Positions 965 through 26,078 of a stretch of 44,183 bases of DNA are shown here, in pieces. The stretch is taken from the sequence record PQ595991.1; one strand, written 5' to 3'. Under the pieces are notes generated by a model. It saw nothing but the letters and a program-made list of their open reading frames with translations, ran no database searches and was not told the origin of the DNA. The translations under genes were made by a program, and so were the position numbers. Each line of letters begins with the position of its first letter. Position 1 is the first letter of the stretch. Origin of the DNA: Escherichia phage Psq-1.

Positions 965-981
965 TTATGCAAGCGTGATAT

Positions 982-1016
982 AGTCCCAGTGAGATAAAAC
1001 TTACTGGGACTTTTTT
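982..1016 (+). terminator. rho-independent terminator
   Basis: Perfect 9-bp stem AGTCCCAGT / ACTGGGACT (982-990, 1003-1011) followed by TTTTTT (1011-1016). Confidence 0.6.
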
Positions 1017-1307
1017 ATGGATAAGCTAAACGAGTGGTTATTCGCCCTGGCATGTCTGGCGGGTGGCTTCGTAGGCGCACGCATTCATGGTGAGGCTACG
1101 AAGGGGCCACTAAACTTCGTTTTGTATGTTGTAGTTGGCTTCTTGTGTGCCATATTTGGCGCACCGGCTATCGCTGAGTGGGCTGGTTTGTCGGGTGAGC
1201 GCACTGTCGCCGGTTTGGGCTTCGTAACCGCAATCTTCTGGATGCCAATCGCCGACCGGATCAGGGAGACTATTGCGTCGTTCCGACTTCCGGGGGGTGC
1301 AAAATGA
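1017..1307 (+). CDS. putative holin (96 aa)
   Basis: Small protein with hydrophobic TM segments (LFALACLAGGFVGA, FVLYVVVGFLCAIFGAPAI, GLGFVTAIFWMPI) just upstream of the lysozyme gene. No Shine-Dalgarno; ATG directly follows the terminator T-run. Confidence 0.5.
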   Translation: MDKLNEWLFALACLAGGFVGARIHGEATKGPLNFVLYVVVGFLCAIFGAPAIAEWAGLSGERTVAGLGFVTAIFWMPIADRIRETIASFRLPGGAK

Positions 1308-1549
1308 TTATCTCCGTCCTGTTGTTTGTTATCATCGGGGCTTCGTCCCTGTTTAACGTGTATGCGCCGTCCGTCCGGGATGGCATTTTCGGTCGGGTGC
1401 TGTATCTGCTAACGGCAATGATCTGTATTATCGGACTGTTGCAAACAGGAGACGTATCCGATACCACCTGGACCGCGTTAATCTGGCTGTTTGCATTGCG
1501 CACCCTGCGTAATGCTGTTTTGAATGGGGTAAAACATGCGATTCAGTGA
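1304..1549 (+). CDS. small membrane protein, possible second holin/antiholin component (81 aa)
   Basis: Two hydrophobic helices (ISVLLFVIIGASSLF, LYLLTAMICIIGLL); sits between holin and endolysin with overlapping stop/start. Confidence 0.4.
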   Translation: MIISVLLFVIIGASSLFNVYAPSVRDGIFGRVLYLLTAMICIIGLLQTGDVSDTTWTALIWLFALRTLRNAVLNGVKHAIQ

Positions 1550-2027
1550 CAACGGTCTACGATTTACGGCAGCATGGGAGGCTTTCAGCCCGGTGCCGTA
1601 TTTCGCGACCAAGAAAGAGCAGGCCCGCGGCCTGTACACCTGGGGTTATGGTCATACAGGCACTAATCCGCCTCGAAGCATTACCCGCGAGGAAGCGCTG
1701 GCACTGCTCAAGCGCGATGTGGCGTATGCCGAGGATTGGGTGAACAAATACGCGCATAAGAGCATTAACCAGGCGCAATTCGACGCGCTGGTGGATCTGG
1801 TAATCAATGCCGGTCCGGGTCCGATCGTACCGGATGATGTTGCGAATGATTTCGATGACGCGGTGCGGTTGGGTGACTGGGCGAAGGTCCGTGCTACTCT
1901 GCCGCAGTTCCGAAAACAAGGCGGTGAAGTGCTTAAGGGTCTGGTACGCCGTGCAATCGGCAGACAGGCGTTGTTTGATGGTAAGCAGTGGGACGTTGCC
2001 GAGCGAATCGGTCGTAACGCTGCATAA
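1536..2027 (+). CDS. endolysin, phage lysozyme (GH24-like)
   Basis: Motifs matching P22/T4-type lysozymes as I remember them: catalytic-region WEAF, TWGYGHTG (cf. TIGVGHTG), NQAQFDALVDLVINAG (cf. NQYDALCSLIFNIG), GRQALF. Confidence 0.85.
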   Translation: MRFSDNGLRFTAAWEAFSPVPYFATKKEQARGLYTWGYGHTGTNPPRSITREEALALLKRDVAYAEDWVNKYAHKSINQAQFDALVDLVINAGPGPIVPDDVANDFDDAVRLGDWAKVRATLPQFRKQGGEVLKGLVRRAIGRQALFDGKQWDVAERIGRNAA

Positions 2028-2043
2028 TACGAGGTGACACAAA

Positions 2044-2445
2044 ATGTTAGATTCGATCTTGCGACGTAAAGAACGCATTATCAAGACTCTGCCCGCAGTG
2101 CAGAACCCAGAAGCGCGCCGCATCCTGGCGGGGGATATGAATGTATCAGGCGTCTTCGACAAGGCCGTGCCTGAAGGGACGCCGGTGGCGAGCGCTACCG
2201 TTACCATCACGCCAGCTACCGCCGCAGTTGGTGAGACAGCCGCCGCGACTGTTGCCATCCTGCCATCCGGCGCGACCAACAAGGCCGGGTCGTGGGTGTC
2301 GGCTAACCCTAACCGCGCCTCAATCAATCCGACTACCGGCGAAATCACAGCGAAAGCAGCGGGTAACGTCCGCATCGTTTGGGTGGCGTCCGACGGTAGC
2401 GGGGTGCAGGCTGACGCAGGCTTCACAGTAACGGCAGCAGAGTAA
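2044..2445 (+). CDS. Ig-like (Big_2-type) domain protein (133 aa)
   Basis: C-terminal ~80 aa has the Big_2 pattern (VTITPATAAV...SWVSANPNRASINPTTGEITAKAAGNVRIVWVASDGSGVQADAGFTV). Confidence 0.45.
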   Translation: MLDSILRRKERIIKTLPAVQNPEARRILAGDMNVSGVFDKAVPEGTPVASATVTITPATAAVGETAAATVAILPSGATNKAGSWVSANPNRASINPTTGEITAKAAGNVRIVWVASDGSGVQADAGFTVTAAE

Positions 2446-2451
2446 ACCAAC

Positions 2452-2479
2452 AAGCCTGGTTAATTCCGGGCTTTTTATT
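2452..2479 (+). terminator. rho-independent terminator
   Basis: Stem AAGCCTGG / CCGGGCTT (one G-U pair), loop TTAATT, then TTTTTATT. Confidence 0.45.
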
Positions 2480-2682: not shown

Positions 2683-3825
2683 ATGCACCCGCAAACTAAA
2701 ATTACCGACGAGCAATTGACCGCAGAAATTCAGGCAGGGACTACGGTTAAAGAGATTGCGAAGGAATACGGCATTGCACTTCGTAACGTCTACATGCGCA
2801 AAGCCCGCCTGTCGAAAAAGGGGATTGGTCACGGCAATGATGCCGTGATCCGTAAGCGCGTTGCCGATGGTTTTGGGGTTAAGCGCGTATCGGCCCTGGT
2901 GCGCGGCAATGGCGAAGAGGTCATGTCGTGGGTCATCACTGAGCAGGACAAGGAGCGCCAACTCGAAGCCATGCGCGCTGTTGTCGAGGGTATGAACAGC
3001 GAAATCACACCGGCAGCGCCAGTAAACGCCCCGCCAGTCCCGATCCAGGCGCTCGACTTGCTCAACCTGTACACAGTGTCCGACTTCCACTTGGGAATGC
3101 TGGCATGGGGCGAGGAGACTGGCGAAGATTGGGATATGGCGATTGCTGAAGACCTGTTCTACCGCTGGTTTGTCGAAGCCTTCGCCCGCGCACCGGACGC
3201 AGGCACTGCCGTTATCAATATCCTCGGAGATATGGCCCACTTTGACAGCCTCGACGCCGTCACACCCGCCAGCGGTCACGTACTGGACGCGGATACCCGC
3301 TACCAGAAACTGGTCCGCTATATGATTCGCATGGTGCGCAACGTGGTTGACCTGGCGCTGCAAAAACACCACAAAGTAAAACTGCTAATCGTTCAGGGTA
3401 ATCATGACGAATCGGGTATGATTTGGCTTGCTGAGATGTTCAATACCCTGTATGAGAACGAGCCGCGCGTCGATGTGGACACGTCCCCGGACGTCTACAA
3501 AATGGTGCAGCACGGTAAGACCACGCTATTTTTCCACCACGGGCACAAAGCGCGATTCGATGTTATCGAGCAGGTTATGATCTCTAAATTCAGACAGGCG
3601 TTCGGGTCGAGCGAATACAGCTACGCGCACGTAGGCCATTTGCACCACCAGAAGATTGTCGAGTCTCGCAACATGATTGTTGAACAGCACCGGACGCTCG
3701 CAGCGAAAGACGCCTACGCCAGTCGTGGCGGTTGGATGTCCGGTCGCAGCGCCAACGTCATTACCTACAGCGCCAACTACGGCGAAGTAGCGCGCTTAAC
3801 CATTAGCCCGGAAATGTTGAAATGA
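2683..3825 (+). CDS. HTH domain fused to calcineurin-like metallophosphoesterase (380 aa)
   Basis: N-terminal ~110 aa with HTH-like TVKEIAKEYGIALRNVYMRKARL. C-terminal domain has all five metallophosphoesterase motifs: DFHLG (DxH), ILGDMAHFD (GDxxD), VQGNHDE (GNHD/E), FFHHGH, HVGHLHH (GHxH). Confidence 0.6.
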   Translation: MHPQTKITDEQLTAEIQAGTTVKEIAKEYGIALRNVYMRKARLSKKGIGHGNDAVIRKRVADGFGVKRVSALVRGNGEEVMSWVITEQDKERQLEAMRAVVEGMNSEITPAAPVNAPPVPIQALDLLNLYTVSDFHLGMLAWGEETGEDWDMAIAEDLFYRWFVEAFARAPDAGTAVINILGDMAHFDSLDAVTPASGHVLDADTRYQKLVRYMIRMVRNVVDLALQKHHKVKLLIVQGNHDESGMIWLAEMFNTLYENEPRVDVDTSPDVYKMVQHGKTTLFFHHGHKARFDVIEQVMISKFRQAFGSSEYSYAHVGHLHHQKIVESRNMIVEQHRTLAAKDAYASRGGWMSGRSANVITYSANYGEVARLTISPEMLK

Positions 3826-4034: not shown

Positions 4035-4052
4035 ACCGCATAGCCTGCCGAT

Positions 4053-4081
4053 TTGGTGGGCTTTTTTGTGCCTGTTATAAT
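4053..4081 (+). promoter_or_regulatory. candidate sigma70 promoter with extended -10 (TGtTATAAT)
   Basis: TATAAT at 4076-4081 preceded by TGT; weak -35 TTGGTG at 4053-4058 with 17-bp spacer; upstream of the packaging genes. Confidence 0.35.
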
Positions 4082-4703: not shown

Positions 4704-6088
4704 TGCGTAACTATGCGGCAGAACACCGCGCACTGGAACGCGCGATCGCAAAGCGCAACAGACCACCACGCCCGACACGCGTTGCGCAGGCGGTGCGTCT
4801 TTACCAGCCTGATTGCTTGCCGCACCAGGTTGAACTATTGCGCGACACAAAGACTAAAATCCTCGGCCTGTGCTCTGGCTTCGGCGGCGGCAAGTCATGG
4901 GTCGCAGCCCGTAAGGTAATCCAGCTTTTAACCCTGAACCCTGGTCATGATGGCATCGTTACAGAGCCGACTATTCCACTCCTGGTTAAGATCATGTACC
5001 CGGAACTGGAGAAGGCATTCGACGAGGCTGGCTTCCGGTGGAAGTTCAATAAGCAGGACAAGATCTACAATGTGCTGGTGAAAGGCAAATGGACTCGCGT
5101 TATCTGTGAGTCAATGGAGAACTATACCCGCCTGATCGGTATCAACGCCGCGTGGATTGTTGCCGACGAGTTCGACACCACGAAGCAAGACGTCGCAATG
5201 GCGGCATACCACAAACTTCTCGGTCGTCTGCGTGCAGGCGTAGTCCGCCAGTTTGTCATAGTGTCCACGCCGGAAGGATTCCGGGCGATGTATCAAATTT
5301 TCGAGGTGGAGAAAGATAGCCAGAAACGCTTGATCCGGGCGAAGACCACGGACAACCACCATTTACCGGCAGACTTTATAGACACGCTTCGCAGTCAGTA
5401 CCCGGCTAACCTGATTGATGCGTACCTGAACGGCATGTTTGTTAACCTTACGTCGGGCGCGGTGTACAAGATGTTCAACCGCGAGGAGAACGCCAGCACC
5501 GAAGAAGTGCAGCCGGACGACACGCTGATTATCGGTATGGACTTTAACGTCACGAAAATGGCGGCGGTCGTGTATGTAAGACGGCAGCGTACCACCGAGA
5601 ACAAGGAGTTCCGCGACGAGATTCACGCGGTGGATGAATTTGTGGACCTGTTTGACACCCCGGCTATGATTGAGGCGATCGAGGAGCGCTACCCAGAACA
5701 TTGCGCCGCCGGTCGTGTTGTCGTTTACCCGGATAGCAGCGGCAAATCACGCAAGACGGTCAACGCGTCGTCGTCCGATATCGCACAACTGGAAGACGCG
5801 GGCTTCGATGTGGAATATGACAGCGTTAACCCGCCAGTGAAAGACCGATTGATCGCGATGAATACGATGATGTGCAACTCGAAGGGCGTTCGCCAGTATT
5901 TTGTCAACCTGGATAAATGCCCTACACTAGCGAAATGTCTGGAACAGCAGGTTTACGACCTGAAGAAAGGCGAGCCGGATAAAACCGCCGGTGTAGACCA
6001 CATGAACGATGCCGCGGGCTACCCTATTGCGCACTTGTTCCCTGTGATTCGTCCGATCGCCGTTGTTCCAACTGTAGACTTCTACTAA
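4703..6088 (+). CDS. terminase large subunit
   Basis: Walker A GFGGGKS, Walker B-like WIVADEFD, C-terminal nuclease-like region; 461 aa. Confidence 0.85.
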   Translation: MRNYAAEHRALERAIAKRNRPPRPTRVAQAVRLYQPDCLPHQVELLRDTKTKILGLCSGFGGGKSWVAARKVIQLLTLNPGHDGIVTEPTIPLLVKIMYPELEKAFDEAGFRWKFNKQDKIYNVLVKGKWTRVICESMENYTRLIGINAAWIVADEFDTTKQDVAMAAYHKLLGRLRAGVVRQFVIVSTPEGFRAMYQIFEVEKDSQKRLIRAKTTDNHHLPADFIDTLRSQYPANLIDAYLNGMFVNLTSGAVYKMFNREENASTEEVQPDDTLIIGMDFNVTKMAAVVYVRRQRTTENKEFRDEIHAVDEFVDLFDTPAMIEAIEERYPEHCAAGRVVVYPDSSGKSRKTVNASSSDIAQLEDAGFDVEYDSVNPPVKDRLIAMNTMMCNSKGVRQYFVNLDKCPTLAKCLEQQVYDLKKGEPDKTAGVDHMNDAAGYPIAHLFPVIRPIAVVPTVDFY

Positions 6089-6099
6089 GGAAACCGACC

Positions 6100-7620
6100 A
6101 TGACCGTTAACGTTGACAACCAGCACCCGCTCTATGCGCGCATCGCGCCAGAGTGGAAAATGATCCGTGACTGCGTAGCAGGGGAGCGCGCCGTGAAGGC
6201 GTGCGGGCCATTGTACCTGCCGCACCCCGCAAGCGGCGACACCACCGACCCGAAATCACGGGCACGCTATAAGGCATATAAGCAACGTGCTGTCTTCCTG
6301 AACGCCACCGCCCGCACACTGAATGCACTGTTAGGCGTCGCCTTCGCCAAACCGGTGAGTATGGACCTTTCCGGGGCAATGGCTGACCTGATCGAAGACG
6401 TAGACGGCAGCGGGATGCCCCTGGCACAACTCCTGCGCGGCGCTATGTCGGAAGTGCTGCAATCAGGCCGTGCCGGGTTTATGGTCGACTACGACCGCCA
6501 GGCGCATTTTGACGAACTAGGTAACGTAGTACCGCAGACCGCCGCTGAGATGGCAGCACACCGCCCGCTTATCCGCCTGTATACGGCTGAACAGATCATC
6601 AACTGGCGGCAGACCCACGGCGTCGATACGCTAATAGTGCTGAAGGAGACGGACGAAATCAGCACCGAAGACCCGGACGACTTCGCAAACCACGAAGTAA
6701 CGATCTGGACCGAGCTTCGCATGATTGCAGGTAAGGCCCACGCCCGCCGCTGGTTTTACAACGCTGACACGTCCGAGGTGCAGATGGACTTGCCGCGAGG
6801 CTTCACCCGCACCGACCTAGTACCATTGGTGGATGCCTCCGGTAATGCGCTAACTCAACTGCCATTTTGCTGGTGTGGCGCGGTGGACAACAACGCGACA
6901 CCGGACGCCGCACCGCTGGCGGATATTGCGTCCATCAACATTAAGCACTACAACGCCGAAGCGGACGTCGCCGAGATTGCGCACATCGTGGGGCAACCTA
7001 CCCTCATTGCGACTGGTCTTACCCAATCATGGGCTGATAAAAACCTGAAGGGCGGCATCGCACTAGGCGCTACTAAGGGCGTTATCCTGGGCCAGAACAT
7101 GGACGCCAAACTGCTTCAGGCGGAGGAGCGCAACTTGTCTGTTGCGCTGTGTGAGCGACGCGAGTTGCAAATGGCTAAACTGGGCGCGGCCCTGGTCGAG
7201 AAGGGGACCGCACCTAAGACGGCAACCGAAGCGGCCTACGATGCGCAGACTGATAACAGTATCCTGTCACTGATTGCCGGTAACGTCGAGAAGGCTTTCA
7301 ACCGGGCGCTGCAAATCGTCAAGCTGTTCACGGGCGACACCGCAGATCAACGCGTAACGCTGAATAAGTTCTACACCGAAATCACGGTTGACGCACAGCT
7401 TATGACCGCAATGATGGCGGGTGTGCAGACCGGTACGGTCCGGCTGGCGGACTTTATCAAGTGGATGATGGCCCAGGGCGTCATTGATGACTCGCAAACC
7501 GTCGAGCAGGTGGAAGACGAACTGCGAAATCAGAATCCATTGCCTCAAATGTCCCCTGATGCGGTAGAATCTACCGAAGAAGACCCGGACAAGGTAGCTG
7601 ACAATGGCGAAGACAATTAA
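6100..7620 (+). CDS. portal protein (506 aa)
   Basis: Size and position between TerL and the head-morphogenesis gene; acidic C-terminus. No specific motif verified. Confidence 0.7.
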   Translation: MTVNVDNQHPLYARIAPEWKMIRDCVAGERAVKACGPLYLPHPASGDTTDPKSRARYKAYKQRAVFLNATARTLNALLGVAFAKPVSMDLSGAMADLIEDVDGSGMPLAQLLRGAMSEVLQSGRAGFMVDYDRQAHFDELGNVVPQTAAEMAAHRPLIRLYTAEQIINWRQTHGVDTLIVLKETDEISTEDPDDFANHEVTIWTELRMIAGKAHARRWFYNADTSEVQMDLPRGFTRTDLVPLVDASGNALTQLPFCWCGAVDNNATPDAAPLADIASINIKHYNAEADVAEIAHIVGQPTLIATGLTQSWADKNLKGGIALGATKGVILGQNMDAKLLQAEERNLSVALCERRELQMAKLGAALVEKGTAPKTATEAAYDAQTDNSILSLIAGNVEKAFNRALQIVKLFTGDTADQRVTLNKFYTEITVDAQLMTAMMAGVQTGTVRLADFIKWMMAQGVIDDSQTVEQVEDELRNQNPLPQMSPDAVESTEEDPDKVADNGEDN

Positions 7621-8707
7621 TCAATATATGGCGGATCGAATGATTCGCCGTCACATATTCACCCAGCGCCTGAGCAATGACCAGGCGCGGAGGGTGCTGG
7701 CTATGTGGGAGAAGTTCCGCCCCTCGTTACTTGGTAAGCTGACCGAGTTACTTGATGGCAAAAAGTCCATGAATAACAAGGCACTGTCCACGCTGTTGAC
7801 GCAACTCGACAAGACAGTTAAAGCAGAATTGCGCACCGAGTTTAAGGCGTTGGCTGAAAGCCTTCAGGAGTTTGCCGACACGGAGGCTGATTATCTCGCC
7901 GACACATTAACGGCAGCGATCCAGCCGGTGGTCGCCGTACGTGCGGTTGAGGTGGTTGGCGTAGTGACCGGTGCGCAGATCGCAGCGACGGCTATGAAAA
8001 ACCCGTTCCAGGGTAATACGATGATGCAATGGCCTGACTCACTTTCTGAGTGGACCAGAACGCAGATCGGCAATCAGGTGCGCGCCGGATTCATCCAGGG
8101 CAAGCCGACTATGGAAATTATAGCGGACGTGAGGCGCGCGCTCGGCGGTCGTAGTGCGCAAGCTATCTCAAGCGTTGTTAAGTCGGCAGTCAACCACTAT
8201 GCGGCTACCGCCCGCGAACTAATGGTAAAAGCAAATGACGATATTCTCGAAGGTCGCCAATGGTTATCTACATTGGACACGCATACTTCTCCCATGTGCC
8301 AGCTACGCGATCGCCTGTTTTATCCGGTTGATGTTACTCCCGACACCAAAGGAAAGCGCGGCGGGGAAGTGGTGGCTGGGTCACAATATGGCGCTGGTCC
8401 GGGCAAGTTGCATTATTGTTGCCGGTCGACGGAGACGTGGAAGGTTAAAGGCATGGAAGATTGGCCCAGTGGTAAGCGTCCGGCACTGAAGGCTGACGCG
8501 GGTCGATTGCTGAGTGAGCAGGTCGACGCGCAGACTGATTTCTTCTCATGGGTGCAGCGCCAGCCGCGCCATATCCTGGAAGAATTATATGGGGTGCAGC
8601 GCGCCGACCAGATTATGCGCGGCGTGAAAGTGCCGAAGATGTTCACCGATTCAGGTGAACTGATGACTATCGCACAGCTTAAAAACCGGGGGTTATGGCG
8701 TGATTAA
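7604..8707 (+). CDS. head morphogenesis protein (MuF / SPP1 gp7-like)
   Basis: 367-aa ORF overlapping the portal stop, in the position of MuF-like minor head proteins. Confidence 0.55.
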   Translation: MAKTINQYMADRMIRRHIFTQRLSNDQARRVLAMWEKFRPSLLGKLTELLDGKKSMNNKALSTLLTQLDKTVKAELRTEFKALAESLQEFADTEADYLADTLTAAIQPVVAVRAVEVVGVVTGAQIAATAMKNPFQGNTMMQWPDSLSEWTRTQIGNQVRAGFIQGKPTMEIIADVRRALGGRSAQAISSVVKSAVNHYAATARELMVKANDDILEGRQWLSTLDTHTSPMCQLRDRLFYPVDVTPDTKGKRGGEVVAGSQYGAGPGKLHYCCRSTETWKVKGMEDWPSGKRPALKADAGRLLSEQVDAQTDFFSWVQRQPRHILEELYGVQRADQIMRGVKVPKMFTDSGELMTIAQLKNRGLWRD

Positions 8708-9029
8708 GTATGCAGCGATTGGACTGGTTATCGGTCTGGCGGTAGGATTCTGGTTAGGCGACTCCTATCGCGCTGGCGTAGTGGCGGAGGCGGCGCAAGA
8801 AGCGCAAGCCGAAGCCCAACGGCAGCAAACTAAAGTAATTGAGCGCTCCGTGCAGGCAGAACAAGCCCGCGACGTGGAATACCGGACTATCACAAAAGAG
8901 GTTGTTAAATATGTTACGCGCCCTAACCGCCCTGATTGTAGTTTTGATGCTGAGCGCGTGCGGATCAAGCAACGCGCCGTTGATGCCGCTAACGGAGTCG
9001 GCACTGCGACCGCCGTGCAAGTTCGATAG
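8700..9029 (+). CDS. i-spanin (Rz-like)
   Basis: N-terminal TM anchor IKYAAIGLVIGLAVGFWLG followed by an A/E/Q-rich coiled-coil segment; the o-spanin-like ORF is embedded in the +1 frame. Confidence 0.5.
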   Translation: MIKYAAIGLVIGLAVGFWLGDSYRAGVVAEAAQEAQAEAQRQQTKVIERSVQAEQARDVEYRTITKEVVKYVTRPNRPDCSFDAERVRIKQRAVDAANGVGTATAVQVR

Positions 9030-9141
9030 CCCGTCCGCAGACCCCGACGAGGATTTGATGATTGACGTGAAAAATATGGAATGCGGGGCGAAGCTAAGGG
9101 CGCAGGTGCTGGAGTTGCAGCAAATAATTAAGGGGCCGTAA
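8911..9141 (+). CDS. o-spanin (Rz1-like outer-membrane lipoprotein)
   Basis: ATG 8911 preceded by AAGAGG; signal peptide MLRALTALIVVLMLSAC with lipobox LSAC; Pro-rich mature part with extra Cys; overlaps and extends past the i-spanin frame. Confidence 0.55.
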   Translation: MLRALTALIVVLMLSACGSSNAPLMPLTESALRPPCKFDSPSADPDEDLMIDVKNMECGAKLRAQVLELQQIIKGP

Positions 9142-9153
9142 TGGCCCCTTTTT
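9131..9153. terminator. bidirectional rho-independent terminator between convergent genes
   Basis: AGGGGCC-GTAAT-GGCCCCT hairpin with TTTTT on the plus side and A-run on the other. Confidence 0.6.
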
Positions 9154-9155
9154 CG

Positions 9156-9920
9156 TTAGCGAGGAATGCCGCAAATCTCGTTGAGTGTTTTCACGTCCAG
9201 CGCCACTGCCGTGGATTTGGGCTTGTCCGTGTATGGGATGAATTGCTCGACTTCAGGCCATGCCTTAATCAGCTTCTTGTCTGTATTGTGCAGGTCCAGT
9301 ACACCGGTAACGGTGAGTTTGAACGCATCATACTTCGCGCGCAACTCGCGACGGGCTTTGTCGTTGCGGTCCAGGCGTTTGCAGAAATAATGATCTGCCG
9401 GGTAGTCTACGCGACCGCGAGGAAGATATATCGGCAACGCTTTCCCGTCCTCGTCCACTTCGCACACTGACGCTAACATAATTTCCTCATACCCAGGTAC
9501 GATATCACCGAGATCGGGCGAGAGATTATTCATATATTTCTCTTCCCAGTACCCGCGATGTATGCGGTGTTGGCGACCGTCGCCGCTCAATGACAAGGTG
9601 CGAACATTGCCGCCTGCGTTGATTTCAAAGGTGGCGTTATAGACGCTGCCGATACCCTTCGGGCGGTCGGAGTTATAACTATACGTCGCCTTGTTGGTGT
9701 ATACGCTGACGCCGTACATCTGCGACTGGTCATCGCGGATTAACAGGATATGCTCGCGTAGCGCGGCGAATGTGCGAATGCCGTCCGGCATACAGTCCAG
9801 CGTGATTGCGTACGCCAGGTCGCGAGAGTCCATCATGATTTGTTTGGCTTCGGTTGCGATTTCGTGGTCGCGCAGGATGTTAGCTAGGATCTGATTTTTA
9901 ATGTCTTTTGTCAGTCTCAT
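9156..9920 (-). CDS. hypothetical protein encoded antisense to the head module (254 aa)
   Basis: Start set at internal ATG 9920 with GAGGA 8 nt upstream; own upstream region with ATTGGTTGCA boxes and own terminator; no motif recognised. Confidence 0.5.
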   Translation of the reverse strand: MRLTKDIKNQILANILRDHEIATEAKQIMMDSRDLAYAITLDCMPDGIRTFAALREHILLIRDDQSQMYGVSVYTNKATYSYNSDRPKGIGSVYNATFEINAGGNVRTLSLSGDGRQHRIHRGYWEEKYMNNLSPDLGDIVPGYEEIMLASVCEVDEDGKALPIYLPRGRVDYPADHYFCKRLDRNDKARRELRAKYDAFKLTVTGVLDLHNTDKKLIKAWPEVEQFIPYTDKPKSTAVALDVKTLNEICGIPR

Positions 9921-20730: not shown

Positions 20731-21338
20731 CCACATTTAAATTATACGGCGTTTTAGGACGTCGATTCGGTAAAGTGCATAAGCTGGATTGCTTCACTCC
20801 TGGCGAGGGTATCACCGGCCTGTGCGTGAAGTTACCCGGCTTACAGGACTTTCTAATGTCGGCACACCTGGACAATATAATGTTCAAGGTGCGCAAAGGC
20901 GACCACACGATGACCGGCTATGATGAGTTGGGCGAGTTCCACGGCAACCGCGTAGTTACCATCGCTCCGGTTATGACGGGCGCAAAAAGAGGTCTGGGCC
21001 AATTGCTGGCGGGTGTGGCAATAGTGGTGGCGTCGTTCTATACCGGCGGACTTGCTACCGCCGCTTTTGGGGCTTCGGCTGCAACCGCTGCCGCTATCGG
21101 AACGGCGACGTTTTCGTTCGGGATGTCGATGGCGCTGGGTGGCGTTATGCAATTGCTATCGCCACAGCCGAAAGGATTGCAGACACGGCAGGACGTGGAT
21201 AACAAAGCGTCGTATGCGTTCGGCGGACCGGTAAACACGACCGCACAAGGTACGGCACTTGGTGTATTATGGGGCGAGCGTGAGATCGGCGGCGCTATTA
21301 TTTCAGCCGGAATCGTAACCGAGGACTTGAACGAATGA
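20721..21338 (+). CDS. tail assembly protein (lambda I-like)
   Basis: 205 aa with Gly/Ala-rich hydrophobic core; position between K-like and J-like genes. Confidence 0.65.
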   Translation: MAMTTFKLYGVLGRRFGKVHKLDCFTPGEGITGLCVKLPGLQDFLMSAHLDNIMFKVRKGDHTMTGYDELGEFHGNRVVTIAPVMTGAKRGLGQLLAGVAIVVASFYTGGLATAAFGASAATAAAIGTATFSFGMSMALGGVMQLLSPQPKGLQTRQDVDNKASYAFGGPVNTTAQGTALGVLWGEREIGGAIISAGIVTEDLNE

Positions 21339-24300
21339 CGATTGTATACGACGTCACAGGCCATAAAGGCGGCGGAGGCAAACAGCACACCCCACAGGAG
21401 ACGCCAGATAGCCTGCATTCGCTGGCTAAAATCCGCATCTTGCTGGCGCTGGGTGAAGGGGAATTCGAAAGTATTACCAGCGCCAGCGAATTGCGGCAGC
21501 GTGTATATCTGGACGGAACACCGATCCAGAATGCTGACCTGTCCGAAAACTTCCCCGGCGCTCGTGTGGAGTTCCGCCCCGGAACCCAGCACCAGGATGT
21601 GATCCACGGATTTTCGGCGGTGGAAAGTGAGCAATCCGTAGGTGTAAAACTGGAAAACGGTACGCCGTGGGTGCGCCAGATTAACGACACCAGTCTTGAC
21701 GCCGTGCGCGTTCGCATCGGCATTCCTGCCCTGTACACTAGCGAAGATAATGGCGACCTGGTGGGCGGGCGCATCGACTATAAGATCGTTGTGTATACGG
21801 ATAACGCCGACCCGCGTGAGTTTACCTTCGCTGCCGTTGGTAAAACAATGTCGTTATACGAGCGCGATCACCGCATCGAGCTACCGCCGAACGTTAACAC
21901 CGGCTGGCGCGTGGAGGTGCACCGCATAACGGCAGACTCCACATCGGCAAAAGTGGTTAACGATATCCAGGTGCAATCTATTACTGAGATTATCGACGCC
22001 CGTCTTCGCTACCCGCTAACCGCGCTGTTGTTCGTGGAGTTCGACGCTAAAGCGTTCCAGAATATCCCGCGCGTGTCCATTAAGTGCAAAGGCCGCAAAG
22101 TTCTAATACCGAACAACTATGACCCGATTACTCATACCTATTCGGGGGACTGGGACGGCACGTTTAGACGCGCATGGACGGATAACCCTGCGTGGCACTG
22201 GTACGATATTTGTATTACGGAACGCTTCGGCCTCGGGCGCCGGATCAAACCGCAAATGCTGAACCGATACGCGCTCTACCAGATTGCGCAGCGCTGCGAT
22301 CAACTGGTCAGCGACGGCAACGGTGGTCGAGAAATCCGCTTTAAGAATGATATGTACATTCAGTCACAGACGGATGCCTGGACCGTGCTTAAGGATTTGG
22401 CTGCCATCTTCGCCGGGATGACTTGGTGGGGCAACCAGATGTTGAATATCGTCAGTGACCAACCGGTCGCAGCAGTGTCGCACACTATCACCAACGCCTC
22501 GGTAATTGATGGTAGATTCGACTACGCATCTGGCAGCCAGAAAACGCGGTACTCCACTTTCGCGGTGGCCTACGGCAACCCGAAAAACCACTATGATGAC
22601 GCTATCGCAACGGGCCAGCGCGTCGAACTGGTGCGCCGCCATAAGATTAACCGTCTTGATATCACGGCGATCGGCTGTACGCGCGAGTCAGAAGCGCAAC
22701 GCCGTGGGCACTGGGCGCTAATATCCAACCAGCTTGACCAGCAGGTCAGCTTCAAGGTTGGCATGGAAGGTCTATTCTTCATTCCGGGTAGCGTAGTCGC
22801 GATCGCAGATACTAATATTTCTGGCGGATTCGAGACTCGCGGCGGTCGCCTATTGTCAGACCCTGGCACGCGTACCGTGCTGAACACAGACAGCGAAATC
22901 ACATTCCGCCCTGGTGATAAGTTCCTGGTGCGCACCGATAGCGGAAATGTGGAGACTCGCGAGATCGCCAGCGTCAACGGCAACAAGGTCACGCTAAAAA
23001 CCGCACTGGATGCCGACCCGATTCCAGACCAACCGTTTTGCGTTGATGGCGATGATATCCAGTTGCAAAAATTCCGCATCACCGACCTTGAGTATGACGA
23101 CTCTACCAGCACTTTCTCGGTGCGCGGGATTGAGTACAACGATAGCAAGTATGATGCCGTTGATAATGGCGCTCGCCTTGATCCTGGCATCTTTACGCAA
23201 GTGCCTGACGGCGTAATGAAGGGGCCGGAGTCTGTGACCATCACACCGTCGCAGATCTCATCGCAAGGCCAGCTAATCACCAACGTGGATATTGTTTTCC
23301 CGCCGGTGAAGGATGCCGTGGTGTATGAAATCCAGTGGCGGCGTACAAGCCTGCAGAATATGGCGGTCCAGTGGGGTAACGACTGGGTGAATATCCCCCG
23401 CACGGCATCGAACGGCGCTCACATCCCTAACGTGTTCTCCGGTAACTACCAGGCGCGCGTCCGCGCGATCGGTATGGGCGAGATTTCATCCCCGTGGGTA
23501 TCGTCCGCTATCACGCCGGTGGAAGGTCGCCTCGGCGGGCTTAACGCACCAATCATCACCATCGCGATTTCGGGTCTGCATCAAATTCTATGGAAGTGGA
23601 ACCACAACAACGCCGCTACGGATATTTCTTACACCGAGCTTGAAGTCCGCAAGACGGGCGAAACGGAATGGAAGTTCTTAACAAACGTCCCGTATCCTGG
23701 CGCGGAGTACGCGCAAACGTCGCTGGAGTTCGGAATTTACCAGCAGTTGCGCGCCCGTGTAGCGGATAAAATTGGCAACCTGTCGGACTGGTCGGCCCCG
23801 TTTGAAGGGCAGGTGAGTGACAAAGTTGACGAGTACATGAAGGGGCTTGATGACGAGTTCTTGACTTCCGAGGATGGTAAACACTTCCAGGAAGCAATCG
23901 ACACCATTCCTCAAGGCATTTATGAGTCTATGCTAACGGACGCACAGCAATTGATTAACGCCCGCTCCGAGTATCAAGGGATTTATGCGGAAATCAAGGT
24001 GGCGTATAACGTTGCCACGGACGCCCACAAGGCAGTAGCGCAACTGGAAACGTTGATCGGCACACGACTTGATGATGCGGAGGCGTCAATCCACACGTTG
24101 CAGACAGCGCAAAGCACGCACGAACAAGCGTTCGCCCAGTACCAACAAACTGTCGCCGCTAAGTTTGGGGAACAGGAAGCCGCCATCCAGCAGGTACAAA
24201 CGGCAACGGCAGACGTAGCTGGCGCACTGGCGGAGTACAAGACCCAGGTCGCGGCACAGTTCGGTCAGCAGTCCGCCGCTATTGAGCAGAAGATGACGTC

Positions 24301-24781
24301 CACGTTTAACCATGCGGGTGGTAGCGCCACTTATAGCCTTAAGGCTGGCGTGACGTATAACGGGGCTTACTATGATGCCGGTATGCAGCTTTCAGTTGTT
24401 GCGGAAGGTGGCGCGGTTAAATCCCGCATCGCGTTCAAGGCGGACCAGTTCTACATCATGCACCCATCTAATGGGTCGCTTTCGTCCGCGTTTATCGTTG
24501 ACGGCGGTCAGGTGTACATTGACACCGCACGCATCAAGAACGCGTCTATCAACTTCGCGCAGATCACGGACACGCTGCAGTCGAATAACTGGAATCCAGG
24601 CAACAGTGGCTGGCGTATCGCGAAGGATGGCGGGGCGGAGTTCAACAACGTAACGGTACGAGGCAACTTGTTCGCTACTACTGGTAACTTCGGATTCTCT
24701 GGAGGGTCGGTACAGATCGACGCCACCGGCATTAACGTGCCGTTACCTGGCGGGGGTAGGGTGAAAGTGGGGACGTGGTAA
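21335..24781 (+). CDS. central tail fibre / host specificity protein (lambda J-like, 1148 aa)
   Basis: Size, position after the I-like gene, and N-terminal region typical of J-family tip proteins. Confidence 0.85.
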   Translation: MTIVYDVTGHKGGGGKQHTPQETPDSLHSLAKIRILLALGEGEFESITSASELRQRVYLDGTPIQNADLSENFPGARVEFRPGTQHQDVIHGFSAVESEQSVGVKLENGTPWVRQINDTSLDAVRVRIGIPALYTSEDNGDLVGGRIDYKIVVYTDNADPREFTFAAVGKTMSLYERDHRIELPPNVNTGWRVEVHRITADSTSAKVVNDIQVQSITEIIDARLRYPLTALLFVEFDAKAFQNIPRVSIKCKGRKVLIPNNYDPITHTYSGDWDGTFRRAWTDNPAWHWYDICITERFGLGRRIKPQMLNRYALYQIAQRCDQLVSDGNGGREIRFKNDMYIQSQTDAWTVLKDLAAIFAGMTWWGNQMLNIVSDQPVAAVSHTITNASVIDGRFDYASGSQKTRYSTFAVAYGNPKNHYDDAIATGQRVELVRRHKINRLDITAIGCTRESEAQRRGHWALISNQLDQQVSFKVGMEGLFFIPGSVVAIADTNISGGFETRGGRLLSDPGTRTVLNTDSEITFRPGDKFLVRTDSGNVETREIASVNGNKVTLKTALDADPIPDQPFCVDGDDIQLQKFRITDLEYDDSTSTFSVRGIEYNDSKYDAVDNGARLDPGIFTQVPDGVMKGPESVTITPSQISSQGQLITNVDIVFPPVKDAVVYEIQWRRTSLQNMAVQWGNDWVNIPRTASNGAHIPNVFSGNYQARVRAIGMGEISSPWVSSAITPVEGRLGGLNAPIITIAISGLHQILWKWNHNNAATDISYTELEVRKTGETEWKFLTNVPYPGAEYAQTSLEFGIYQQLRARVADKIGNLSDWSAPFEGQVSDKVDEYMKGLDDEFLTSEDGKHFQEAIDTIPQGIYESMLTDAQQLINARSEYQGIYAEIKVAYNVATDAHKAVAQLETLIGTRLDDAEASIHTLQTAQSTHEQAFAQYQQTVAAKFGEQEAAIQQVQTATADVAGALAEYKTQVAAQFGQQSAAIEQKMTSTFNHAGGSATYSLKAGVTYNGAYYDAGMQLSVVAEGGAVKSRIAFKADQFYIMHPSNGSLSSAFIVDGGQVYIDTARIKNASINFAQITDTLQSNNWNPGNSGWRIAKDGGAEFNNVTVRGNLFATTGNFGFSGGSVQIDATGINVPLPGGGRVKVGTW

Positions 24782-24788
24782 AGGAGAA

Positions 24789-24810
24789 GGGGCCATCCGG
24801 CCCCTTTTTT
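24789..24810. terminator. bidirectional rho-independent terminator
   Basis: GGGGCC-ATCC-GGCCCC hairpin with TTTTTT downstream on plus and an A-run on the other side, between convergent genes. Confidence 0.6.
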
Positions 24811-25774
24811 AATAGATGTTAGGAATTACGAGTAACGGGGTGGGTACTGCAATATTTTTACCCGGCATTTGGAATTGCTGCCGTGAATAGTTGCCGATTA
24901 CCCGGTTTTTGGCAATGCGCACATTACCGCCTGCCATTCGAATCCCGTTCATTCGAACGTGATTGTAGCCGCCGTTGTTCTCAATGAGCGCGCCGGTATA
25001 CGAAAGCTGGACCAGGCTATTGCCTATGTACTGATCGCCGCCGCCGATATAGATAAGGCGGTCATAAACAAATGGCTTATTCACTGTTGAGAACGTGACC
25101 TGACCCTGGTTGTTTGTCATGGTTATGCCGTTTCCAGGGGTGGGTGGCGTATTGTTGAATATAACCAGGTCCATTTCAACGGCAGCGCCTACGTCGTCAA
25201 TCCCACCATAGGACGCATTACGGACGATAATACTTCCGCCATCGAAGCCGACCGACACGTTTCCGTCGTCCCAGCGCGCGAATGGGACACCACCTACAGG
25301 TAACGGCATACTTCCGTTCACCCACACGCGCTGCGCATATTGGCAGGTCATTAGCCTGGATACATTTGATATGGCGGTGAAGTCCGTCGAGTTCGCCACC
25401 AGTAACCCTGCGTTGCGCGAACCCACCGGCAACACTTCCATGATCACCCCGCCCCATGTTGGAAGCCCGCTATATGCGCCATATGCGTCTTCACCTCGCA
25501 AGGTGATTCCGCCATCCCCGTTACGTTGTACTGAGGTGACGTAGAAAGGGTCGGGCAAGACCAGTGTCTGGTCGAATACTTCTATAACTTCAACGGGGCT
25601 TGTGAGCGCGACGACCAGATCTGACCCTGGCGTTAGCTGAGTGTTAATAGTAAGCGTCTTATCAGACTGGCAGCGCTGATAGAATGAGGTACAGAATGAC
25701 GGAGCGCGAAGTCCGGCTGTTATCTCCATCACCGGCCTTCCGTCGTTGTAGTCTATAAGTATTCCAGCGCCCAT
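24809..25774 (-). CDS. hypothetical Gly/Asn-rich protein, possible receptor-binding protein (321 aa)
   Basis: ATG 25774 with GGGAG upstream, overlapping the stop of the lipoprotein gene; beta-rich composition (GGGDQYIGNS, NNGGYNH); antisense between J and the tail fibre. Product assignment is by analogy only. Confidence 0.4.
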   Translation of the reverse strand: MGAGILIDYNDGRPVMEITAGLRAPSFCTSFYQRCQSDKTLTINTQLTPGSDLVVALTSPVEVIEVFDQTLVLPDPFYVTSVQRNGDGGITLRGEDAYGAYSGLPTWGGVIMEVLPVGSRNAGLLVANSTDFTAISNVSRLMTCQYAQRVWVNGSMPLPVGGVPFARWDDGNVSVGFDGGSIIVRNASYGGIDDVGAAVEMDLVIFNNTPPTPGNGITMTNNQGQVTFSTVNKPFVYDRLIYIGGGDQYIGNSLVQLSYTGALIENNGGYNHVRMNGIRMAGGNVRIAKNRVIGNYSRQQFQMPGKNIAVPTPLLVIPNIY

Positions 25775-25776
25775 AA

Positions 25777-25998
25777 TTACCACTCCCGAGATTTAACTGA
25801 TACCGTACCAGAGAAGTTGCCGTCACTATCCGCGGACAGGCCGGTGAAGCGCATGTCGACCTCCCCAGCAGGGACTTTTTGCCCGTCAACGTAGCGCAAC
25901 ATGCAGCTTCCGTAAGCTACCGTAATGCAATCGCCGTTGTTACGCTCTACCGCGCAGCCGGACAGAAGAACCGCACAAATCACAATTAATGTTTTCAT
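25777..25998 (-). CDS. small lipoprotein, Llp/Cor-like superinfection-exclusion candidate (73 aa)
   Basis: ATG 25998 with AGGGGA upstream; signal peptide MKTLIVICAVLLSGC with lipobox LSGC; four further Cys in the mature part. Confidence 0.6.
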   Translation of the reverse strand: MKTLIVICAVLLSGCAVERNNGDCITVAYGSCMLRYVDGQKVPAGEVDMRFTGLSADSDGNFSGTVSVKSREW

Positions 25999-26078
25999 GG
26001 TATCATCCCCTATATTTGGTTGAGTTTTAGTATTGCACCGCTCAACCAAGAATGCAACCAATTTATGAGGATTCAGCT

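Follow-up and report, generated by a model that had tools for sequence, protein, structure and literature searches.

A probable overlapped two-component spanin in the head-gene block of a Dhillonvirus genome, at an apparently inherited site apart from the holin and endolysin genes

Two overlapping reading frames that follow the head-morphogenesis gene of Escherichia phage Psq-1 raise the questions of whether they encode the spanins of this phage and why they are placed 6.7 kb from the end of the endolysin gene. The window, the whole stretch of 44,183 nt that was analyzed (PQ595991.1), is a complete Dhillonvirus genome. The pair at 8700-9141 is very probably an overlapped two-component spanin of the "Jersey" family, EP23/HK578 subfamily, that occupies a stable, inherited site in the head-gene block (Table 1). 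Both the pair and its detached position are already known from a curated catalogue, from GenBank, and from the genome announcement of a related phage. The function is assigned from the anatomy, homology, and context of the pair, because literature searches for an experimental paper on the "Jersey"-type spanin family returned none and no experimentally tested family member was found.

Table 1. Spanin genes, lysis cassette, and putative expression signals in the window
Feature	Position	Strand	Details
Extended -10-like element TGATATAGT	976-984	+	conserved; overlaps the 5' arm of the 982-1011 hairpin
Hairpin with T-run adjoining the holin ATG	982-1011	+	-19.8 kcal/mol, z -6.1; conserved
Holin	1017-1307	+	PHROG match (lysis cassette: phrog_2359, phrog_2508, phrog_7)
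Second holin or antiholin	1304-1549	+	PHROG match
Lysozyme-type endolysin	1536-2027	+	Pfam Phage_lysozyme, E=5.8e-21
Terminator-like hairpin 3' of the lysis cassette and Ig-like gene	2452-2473	+	folding
Terminator-like hairpin just upstream of terS	4042-4062	+	folding; conserved across loci
Extended -10 element TGTTATAAT	4073-4081	+	sole perfect match in the window; after the 4042-4062 hairpin
Head-morphogenesis gene (SPP1 gp7/Mu F-like)	7604-8707	+	phrog_241, E=1.3e-116; directly upstream of the i-spanin gene
Head-morphogenesis/i-spanin junction	8688-8707	+	GGGGG Shine-Dalgarno 8688-8692, GTG 8700, upstream stop 8705-8707
i-spanin gene	8700-9029	+	GTG start, 109 aa; ORF and phrog_2536 match
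o-spanin ribosome-binding site and start	8896-8913	+	AAGAGG 8896-8901, ATG 8911-8913
o-spanin gene	8911-9141	+	ATG start, +1 frame, 76-aa prolipoprotein; lipobox scan and PHROG matches
Dual-coding overlap of both spanin genes	8911-9029	+	119 nt
Bidirectional intrinsic-terminator-like hairpin	9130-9150	.	-15.4/-15.9 kcal/mol, z -3.2/-3.6

The two proteins were compared with the properties by which two-component spanins are recognized in Summer et al. 2007 and Kongari et al. 2018 (PMC6139136). For the i-spanin, one transmembrane domain is predicted, at the N-terminus (N-in, C-out), followed by a periplasmic domain that is predicted to be mostly helical. Its sole hydrophobic stretch comprises residues 5-19 (AAIGLVIGLAVGFWL, Kyte-Doolittle(15) 2.33) with Lys3 on the N side, and the short periplasmic domain of 88 aa harbors one conserved cysteine, Cys80. 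The o-spanin starts with a signal peptide and lipobox (MLRALTALIVVLMLSA/CGSS, LSA/C, Cys17) that pass a PROSITE-style lipobox rule, which bears out the LSAC lipoprotein proposed for this frame in the first-pass annotation. Its +2 residue is Gly and not Asp, which is consistent with sorting of the predicted lipoprotein to the outer membrane, and the mature protein of 60 aa starts with CGSS, is Pro-rich, and carries the conserved Cys36 and Cys58. Both subunits thereby contain periplasmic cysteines for homotypic intermolecular disulfides, which are themselves predicted. The genes are arranged in the overlapped manner, in the +1 frame.

One detail of the first-pass description is wrong and another is unsupported. 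The o-spanin gene was called embedded, but it begins within the i-spanin frame and runs 112 nt past its end. The i-spanin was termed a coiled-coil protein, but a heptad a/d test finds no preferred register (best 6/15 hydrophobic), and supplementary file 4 of Kongari et al. 2018, taken as the coiled-coil table, gives 0 segments for the 109-aa i-spanin of EP23; the same supplement puts the helix content of the periplasmic domain of EP23 at 49% (PMC6139136). A single-sequence AF2 model of low confidence (pLDDT 61.6, pTM 0.23) places a helix at 5-72, a linker, and a helix at 84-97, which is read as a weak hint at secondary structure only.

The i-spanin matches phrog_2536 ("Rz-like spanin," E=3.2e-36) and the o-spanin matches phrog_5672 (likewise "Rz-like spanin," E=4e-26) and phrog_1267 (E=7e-12). 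These PHROGs correspond to the "Jersey" family, so both subunits are significantly similar to its members. A Pfam-A scan at E<=0.1 yields only a sub-threshold DUF7904 match for the i-spanin and none for the o-spanin, and an NCBIfam scan of both proteins yields nothing meaningful. Pfam has families for both lambda proteins (Rz lysis protein and Rz1 lipoprotein), and neither window protein matches the lambda Rz/Rz1 sequence families above the gathering score. The pair thus appears to be a functional analogue of lambda Rz/Rz1 that lacks detectable sequence kinship. A PDB sequence search with the i-spanin returns chance-level matches only (E>=0.15). When 8700-9141 is compared by megablast with complete E. 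coli genomes, no match results, so that collection contains no close prophage copy.

The strong PHROG matches, an indel-free length, and the substitution patterns make the pair more than a chance coincidence. All 18 distinct Dhillonvirus versions are exactly 442 nt long. In the single-coding parts, about 60% of the substitutions are synonymous (21-25% expected), and in the overlap changes that hit both frames are rarer than expected (9/39 observed vs 165/348 possible, 47%), which indicates purifying selection on both reading frames. V68, K70, Y71, P75, C80, A93, and A97 of the i-spanin are invariant in nine diverse homologues. The lipobox reads L[ST]AC in all Dhillonvirus copies and is also kept in the homologues from Kagunavirus, TS6, L025, and Klebsiella phage 2b; Cys36 (PPC) and Cys58 (EC) are kept in these, in SETP7, and in L023, and equivalents are missing from the most distant o-spanin homologue, L027. 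With coordinates, frame, PHROG matches, and selection all in agreement, the overlapped Rz/Rz1-like pair of the first-pass annotation holds as a gene model.

The closest relatives are catalogued. The spanins of EP23, HK578, JL1, and SSL-2009a belong to the "Jersey" overlapped family of Kongari et al. 2018, and the EP23 and HK578 models there (109 and 76 aa, 119-nt overlap, +1 frame) are identical to those of the window (PMC6139136). EP23p05/p06 and HK578_005/006, of the second "Jersey" subfamily, are orthologous to the window pair (94-99% protein identity to EP23), follow the head-morphogenesis gene with the same GGGGG Shine-Dalgarno, and differ from it by point substitutions only. GenBank has the same gene models for a BASEL phage (Bas18), and the record of BASEL phage Oekolampad (MZ501095) names the two genes of this locus i-spanin and o-spanin. 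Many GenBank and RefSeq records start the o-spanin at an internal ATG (52 aa, e.g., EP23 4908-5066). With this call the signal peptide and the lipobox are lost, whereas the start at 8911 keeps both.

The holin and lysozyme at 1017-2027 are confirmed by PHROG and Pfam matches, and the physical distance to the spanins is as the first-pass annotation described it. The usual, though not defining, context of spanins, the end of a holin-endolysin cassette, is not found here. A six-frame lipobox scan of the window gives no second spanin candidate, so the pair after the head-morphogenesis gene remains the only one. The only other credible lipoprotein of the window, 25998-25777(-), was rejected as an o- or u-spanin: it is encoded in the tail-fibre region, its matches are to phrog_4281 and weakly to Cor, and the spanin-pair scan did not return it. 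Beside the endolysin gene, ORF 2044-2445 was considered as a second spanin or u-spanin and encodes an Ig-like (Big_2) domain protein; ORF 2141-2431, which is embedded in it, has no lipobox. A unimolecular spanin of the T1 gp11 type was also rejected, as the o-spanin has no hydrophobic window past its signal peptide, and no other lipobox ORF with a C-terminal transmembrane domain was seen in the window scan.

The gene order around the pair is terS-terL-portal-head morphogenesis-(Hoc-like)-i/o-spanin-scaffold-major capsid, and the holin-holin-endolysin group precedes terS by a few kb. At least 136 Dhillonvirus-type phage records carry the spanin locus in this place, as does each of the 15 Dhillonvirus-like IMG/VR contigs found (L008-L022). 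The order is common to Dhillonvirus, Kagunavirus K1ind2, and Jerseyvirus SETP7. As the flanking proteins are only 25-50% identical between these genera, the arrangement must be considered old and stable, and the detached placement appears to be an inherited, stable synteny.

The Guernseyvirinae spanins (K1ind2 gp06/gp07, SETP7 gp08/gp09, Schulenberg QEG06797/QEG06798) are overlapped members of the same family with 36-48% identity, and those of Jerseyvirus SeF1 are assigned to the same two PHROGs as the window pair. In Kagunavirus and Jerseyvirus, the spanins also lie between the head-morphogenesis and scaffold genes, and the homologous holin-holin-endolysin cassette is found before terS, at a distance of kilobases; in K1ind2, it precedes the spanins by about 7.7 kb. 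The Guernseyvirinae differ in their longer i-spanins with polyQ stretches (128 aa vs 109 aa in the window), in a Hoc-like decoration gene between the head-morphogenesis gene and the spanins, in a separate Shine-Dalgarno without the 8-nt coupling overlap, and in having neither a convergent Nmad5 gene nor a terminator after the pair.

The general statement that lysis genes are usually clustered, which made the separation seem unusual, is weaker than first put. The separation of spanins from holin and endolysin is stated in print for phage Schulenberg (PMC6763661), and in the virulent phage T4 the spanin genes PseT.3/PseT.2 are not near the holin (t) or endolysin (e) genes (Kongari et al. 2018, PMC6139136). 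The T4 proteins are similarly small (117 and 83 aa), but their genes are of the separated type and not homologous to the window pair. Furthermore, all lysis genes of T4 are scattered, whereas the window has a tight holin-endolysin cassette from which only the spanins are apart.

In Dhillonvirus, the i-spanin appears to be translationally coupled to the head-morphogenesis gene. Its Shine-Dalgarno and GTG lie inside the 3' end of that gene, the two genes overlap by 8 nt, and this junction with its Shine-Dalgarno is kept in 21/21 Dhillonvirus copies. The GGGGG Shine-Dalgarno of the i-spanin is also recorded in the Kongari et al. 2018 supplement (PMC6139136). The ribosome-binding site and ATG of the o-spanin are encoded within the best-conserved i-spanin motif, K-E-V-V-K-Y-V, and the ATG falls on the K-Y-V codons in Dhillonvirus, L023, L025, Klebsiella 2b, and L027. 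Part of the "protein" conservation of EVVKY may reflect these translational signals.

The coupling, together with signals further upstream, bears on the possibility that the separate position serves a distinct regulation. The spanins would be expressed with the packaging and head genes from a promoter upstream of terS, while the holin-endolysin cassette would be insulated and have its own promoter. Spanin dosage or timing would then be linked to virion assembly and set independently of the holin clock, which would add to the inherited placement as the best explanation; this addition is tentative and on balance doubtful. Between endolysin and spanins lie the hairpins at 2452-2473 and 4042-4062, and a third precedes the holin. 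Their positions are conserved across Dhillonvirus even where the sequence is not: hairpins of different sequence occupy the 2452-2473 position in L012 and L021, and the divergent L021 has a different hairpin plus TGATATAAT at the equivalent of 4042-4081. The two extended -10 elements, each found with a hairpin, are likewise retained in L021 despite altered flanks. The transcription unit that the spanins close may begin at 4042-4081. The hairpin at 9130-9150 holds the o-spanin stop codon in its loop and marks the end of the convergent Nmad5 gene as well as of the terS-to-spanin block. It is present in 11/11 Dhillonvirus loci examined and shows a compensatory A-U to G-C change. Taken together, these four conserved terminator-like hairpins and the pair of conserved extended -10 elements hint at one transcription unit for the lysis cassette and another for the terminase-to-spanin block.

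On the other side, all of these elements are consensus matches. Perfect TGNTATAAT occurs once in the window vs 0.98 expected by chance, and a generic sigma-70 promoter scan of the window is not enriched over shuffles, so the promoter assignment draws on position and conservation only. The hairpins may leak or be antiterminated in late transcription, and both units belong to the late region and share a strand, so their timing may be equal. A literature search on Dhillonvirus transcriptomics returned no phage transcript map among its titles and abstracts. Lastly, spanins are inert until murein is degraded and do not require independent control. That the tethering to the head operon is a selected design in which spanin dosage scales with virion production, independent of the holin clock, is a good deal less likely still; translational coupling, conserved terminators, and separate extended -10 promoters could form the tether of such a design.

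A module boundary created by recombination, as offered in the first-pass annotation, would mean that a recent illegitimate or homologous exchange moved the pair out of a contiguous lysis cassette. Homologues with 35-60% identity do sit in canonical lysis cassettes, with the order holin-holin-endolysin-i/o-spanin in L025 and Q-S-lysozyme-spanin in Klebsiella phage 2b LV-2017, so a translocation or a cassette split must have occurred at some point. The slot directly 3' of the o-spanin is variable and contains Nmad5, RusA, or nothing. Within the genus, two spanin alleles exist (109-aa and 102-aa i-spanins), whose identity falls to 70-75% in 9000-9099 compared to 90-97% in most flanking bins. The variable slot and the alleles would fit an exchange, but the divergence profile is a soft local dip without a sharp breakpoint, and the tight 8-nt overlap with its conserved Shine-Dalgarno leaves no scar in any Dhillonvirus copy. 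The same position between head-morphogenesis and scaffold genes in three genera places any relocation before their divergence. A recent event appears largely refuted by this cross-genus synteny and is very improbable.

A role outside lysis, such as superinfection exclusion or an accessory function in head assembly, would explain the site among morphogenesis genes and would accommodate a family with no Pfam or NCBIfam match, but it is the most improbable reading of all, as the distant homologues end holin-endolysin cassettes in other phages and thereby support a lysis role, no other spanin candidate is found in the genome of this phage with a Gram-negative host, spanins are defined by a transmembrane protein paired with a +1-frame lipoprotein and by conserved Cys in the periplasmic parts, and a separate Cor-like lipoprotein is present at 25998-25777(-).

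For a spanin with an inherited place in the head-gene block, a mechanism can be proposed by analogy with the lambda Rz/Rz1 paradigm. The N-terminal helix would anchor the 109-aa i-spanin to the inner membrane, and the mature 60-aa o-spanin, which lacks Asp at +2 and would therefore be sorted by Lol, would have its lipid anchor in the outer membrane, on the inner leaflet. Joined via their periplasmic ends, the two would form a bridge threaded through the peptidoglycan, which is probably stabilized by homotypic disulfides (i-spanin Cys80; o-spanin Cys36 and Cys58). The complex would build up harmlessly in late infection. Once the holin triggers and the endolysin clears the murein mesh, the freed complex would fuse or destroy the outer membrane. 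Co-regulation with the holin would be unnecessary, because intact murein restrains spanin activity. In the lineage of Dhillonvirus, Kagunavirus, and Jerseyvirus, the spanin genes conclude the terminase-portal-head-morphogenesis block; those of Dhillonvirus appear to be translationally coupled to the head-morphogenesis gene and end at the putative bidirectional terminator.

The likeness to lambda lies in a type II inner-membrane protein and a +1-frame outer-membrane lipoprotein encoded by the same DNA, in periplasmic Cys, and in a Pro-rich o-spanin; a shared mechanism is presumed. The differences are that Rz1 is fully embedded in Rz whereas the window genes overlap, that Rz has 153 aa with predicted coiled coils whereas none were detected in the 109-aa window i-spanin, and that Rz/Rz1 close the S-R-Rz/Rz1 cassette whereas the window pair lies in the head operon.

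The importance of the locus beyond annotation hygiene is small. Many Dhillonvirus and Jerseyvirus records, as well as the PHROG 5672 profile, contain an N-terminally truncated o-spanin without lipobox, and automatic pipelines can consequently under-call the o-spanin or label the i-spanin "hypothetical." In phage engineering and in checks of lysis-module completeness, the head-gene block should be inspected and not the endolysin neighborhood alone. For the little-studied Dhillonvirus, the conserved layout of terminators and promoters offers a modest lead on late transcription.

The two overlapping genes that follow the head-morphogenesis gene of Psq-1 encode an inner-membrane-type i-spanin and a predicted lipoprotein, the o-spanin (see table). 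The only hydrophobic segment of the i-spanin spans residues 5-19; it precedes an 88-aa domain that is rich in Ala, Val, Arg, Gln, and Glu, with the sole Cys at position 80. Its low-confidence AF2 model consists of a helix (5-72), a linker (73-83) containing Cys80, and a second helix (84-97). The coiled-coil label of the first-pass annotation found support neither in a heptad test nor in the supplement of Kongari et al. (2018, PMC6139136). The o-spanin, which begins with MLRALTALIVVLMLSACGSS..., carries typical n- and h-regions and, as had been proposed, a lipobox (LSA-C) with Gly at +2; the mature 60-aa protein is Pro-rich and contains Cys36 and Cys58. Their genes share 119 nt, after which the o-spanin frame runs on for 112 nt past the i-spanin stop; the architecture is therefore overlapped, not embedded as part of the first description had it. 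The head-morphogenesis gene (7604-8707) overlaps the i-spanin GTG by 8 nt at its end. This GTG is preceded by a GGGGG Shine-Dalgarno sequence, and AAGAGG lies upstream of the o-spanin ATG at a spacing of 9 nt. A six-frame lipobox scan gave no further spanin candidate in the window, in agreement with the pair having been called the only one; apart from the o-spanin, just one ORF convincingly encodes a lipoprotein, and it is weakly Cor-like and lies in the tail-fibre region.

Coordinates of the lysis genes, terminator-like hairpins, and other genes discussed
Feature	Position	Strand	Details
Hairpin	982-1011	+	T-run; ends 5 nt before holin ATG (1017); -19.8 kcal/mol, z -6.1
Holin	1017-1307	+	first in gene order
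Second holin or antiholin	1304-1549	+	
Lysozyme-type endolysin	1536-2027	+	
Ig-like ORF, variable	2044-2445	+	133 aa; Big_2 domain E=6.6e-10; phrog_215 "structural protein with Ig domain"
Hairpin	2452-2473	+	downstream of lysis cassette
DNA-repair exonuclease	2683-3825	+	380 aa; phrog_704
Hairpin	4042-4062	+	upstream of terS
i-spanin	8700-9029	+	GTG start, 109 aa; ORF list
o-spanin	8911-9141	+	ATG start, +1 frame, 76 aa; ORF list and translation
Hairpin	9130-9150	bidirectional	shared with convergent Nmad5 gene; loop holds o-spanin stop codon
Nmad5 protein	9156-9920	-	254 aa; PF18757 (nucleotide modification associated domain 5) E=1.3e-58; phrog_1965
Membrane protein	24809-25783	-	324 aa; phrog_1265; adjoins lipoprotein
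Lipoprotein MKTLIVICAVLLSG-C (lipobox Cys)	25777-25998	-	73 aa; phrog_4281; weak Cor superinfection-exclusion match E=5e-4

Judged from sequence comparison, the pair is more than a product of chance. The i-spanin matches phrog_2536 ("Rz-like spanin", E=3.2e-36) and the o-spanin matches phrog_5672 (E=4e-26) and phrog_1267 (E=7e-12). The 442-nt segment is free of indels among 18 distinct Dhillonvirus versions. In its single-coding parts ~60% of the observed substitutions are synonymous versus 21-25% of the possible ones, and in the dual-coding overlap 9/39 observed changes alter both proteins versus 165/348 possible ones. The motif TITKEVVKYV..P.R..C.FD.ERV..KQRAVDAAN is retained in homologs down to 33-40% identity, along with the lipobox and all three periplasmic cysteines. 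The Rz/Rz1-like spanin call is sound. Neither protein has a Pfam or NCBIfam match, so no sequence relationship of the pair to lambda Rz/Rz1 is detectable, and a PDB sequence search with the i-spanin returned no related solved structure.

The o-spanin Shine-Dalgarno sequence and ATG (8896-8913) are encoded by codons of the most conserved i-spanin motif, K-E/D-V-V-K-Y-V, with the ATG spanning the Y and V codons. The same nesting occurs in the homologous loci L023, L025, L027, and L030, and the o-spanin start has an identical position in Dhillonvirus, in metagenomic relatives, and in a lambdoid Klebsiella phage. Conservation of the motif may partly be owed to these translation signals. In the homologous pair of Salmonella phage TS6 (MK214385, 3974-4562; Guernseyvirinae), the o-spanin start lies just 8 nt upstream of the i-spanin stop; one spanin family therefore holds both overlapped and almost separated architectures.

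The pair has been catalogued before, and its odd position is a documented, conserved trait of the phage lineage. Kongari et al. place EP23, HK578, JL1, and SSL-2009a in the "Jersey" family, whose two-component spanins are overlapped; its EP23-to-SO-1 members make up a subfamily of shorter proteins that have two helices plus a linker with one predicted β-strand motif (PMC6139136). The supplementary tables list exactly the gene models of the window (109-aa i-spanin, 76-aa o-spanin, 119-nt overlap, +1 frame, GGGGG Shine-Dalgarno; PMC6139136). BASEL phage Oekolampad (Bas18, MZ501095) is annotated with "i-spanin" and "o-spanin" at this locus, both genes are named "Rz-like spanin" in RefSeq records, and a recent Dhillonvirus paper lists, but does not comment on, a spanin seven genes away from the endolysin and holins. 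The i-spanin is still a "hypothetical protein" in several records. In many GenBank/RefSeq records the annotated o-spanin begins at an internal ATG (8983-9141 in the window), which yields 47-52 aa and loses the signal peptide and lipobox (EP23, NC_016566 4908-5066; StarDew, OL615010 4944-5102; SETP7, NC_022754 6291-6434). The phrog_5672 profile has just 47 positions and matches only residues 32-76, so this truncation has spread into the family model.

The separation from the holin and endolysin, whose positions were borne out, is real. The exonuclease gene is followed by terS, terL, portal, head morphogenesis, the spanin pair, convergent Nmad5 (-), scaffold, and major capsid. Segment 7600-10000 shares 92-95% identity with at least 100 Dhillonvirus phages of Escherichia, Shigella, and Salmonella, including Sponge, SSL-2009a, EP23, and YD-2008.s, and at least 136 records cover at least 80% of it; the 44,183-bp length of the window agrees with the size of these phage genomes. 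In Kagunavirus K1ind2 and Jerseyvirus SETP7, spanin homologs (36-48% identity) occupy the same slot, with the head-morphogenesis and scaffold genes on either side. Upstream of terS these phages have homologs of the holin-holin-endolysin cassette; those of K1ind2 are 46-51% identical and, on the circular map, ~7.7 kb away from the spanins. The portal, head-morphogenesis, and scaffold proteins are only 25-35% identical to those of Kagunavirus/Jerseyvirus, so the arrangement is old.

A module boundary created by recombination is unsupported as a recent event, given the same synteny across genera with divergent flanks; by this comparison the separation characterizes the clade as a whole and is no recent scar. 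Two alleles of the segment, with 109-aa and 102-aa i-spanins, occur in Dhillonvirus, and both spanins diverge jointly in the same genomes. Inter-allele identity falls to 70-75% in 9000-9099, with most flanking bins at 90-97%, which looks like the soft dip typical of fast-evolving, co-evolving partners and not like a sharp breakpoint. More distant homologs reside in canonical cassettes, namely holin-holin-endolysin-i/o-spanin in one run (IMG/VR contig L025) and Q-S-lysozyme-spanin (Klebsiella phage 2b LV-2017). This supports a lysis function and shows that a relocation or cassette split predates the Dhillonvirus-Guernseyvirinae divergence. For the related phage Schulenberg the separation has been stated in print (PMC6763661), and the spanin genes of T4 likewise lie apart from holin and endolysin (Kongari et al. 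2018, PMC6139136).

Nmad5 had no tblastn match in the Dhillonviruses L009, L016, L018, and L019, and EP23 has an additional RusA-like gene in this slot, so the spanin-scaffold gap is a variable moron site. The Ig-like ORF, directly 3′ of the endolysin within the terminator-bounded lysis unit, is 41-96% identical across Dhillonviruses or without match. Exonuclease homologs in Jerseyvirus/Kagunavirus records (L004, 12921-13274 (-); L006, 1418-2548 (-)) follow the tail genes on the opposite strand, whereas that of the window lies between lysis cassette and terS. Because of this differing location and an identity (K1ind2 75%; SETP7 93%, partial match) far above that of neighboring structural genes (25-50%), a recent horizontal exchange between genera is suggested. 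The Cor-like lipoprotein and its adjoining membrane protein, which lie between a 1148-aa ORF (21335-24781) and the gene for the tail fibre (26052-27719), probably form an exclusion module that blocks a receptor.

In all 11 Dhillonvirus loci having enough upstream sequence, four hairpins with T-runs occur at conserved positions; compensatory changes are seen, and the loci L012 and L021 have hairpins of differing sequence at equivalent positions. The extended -10 element TGTTATAAT (4073-4081), just past hairpin 4042-4062, is the sole perfect match in the window. A conserved extended -10-like element, TGATATAGT (976-984), overlaps the 5′ arm of hairpin 982-1011, and the divergent locus L021 keeps both elements despite changed flanks. 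A transcript starting at TGATATAGT would be without this arm, so the hairpin could block upstream transcription while sparing the holin's own mRNA. A possible holin Shine-Dalgarno sequence (GGGA) lies in its 3′ arm. The layout fits an insulated holin-endolysin unit and a terS-to-spanin unit ending at the bidirectional terminator, with substantial reservations: chance predicts one perfect extended -10 motif genome-wide, a generic promoter scan was not enriched, and terminators can be read through. A literature search returned no Dhillonvirus transcript map.

Anatomy and homology to cassette-resident relatives indicate that the most likely mode of action is that of Rz/Rz1: the pair would be held in check by peptidoglycan and, once the murein is degraded, would remove the outer membrane. 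In the established lambda model, spanins stay inactive as long as the endolysin has not removed the murein, so co-regulation with holin and endolysin is not required. The tentative proposal of separate timing or transcriptional control now comes with concrete, checkable elements.
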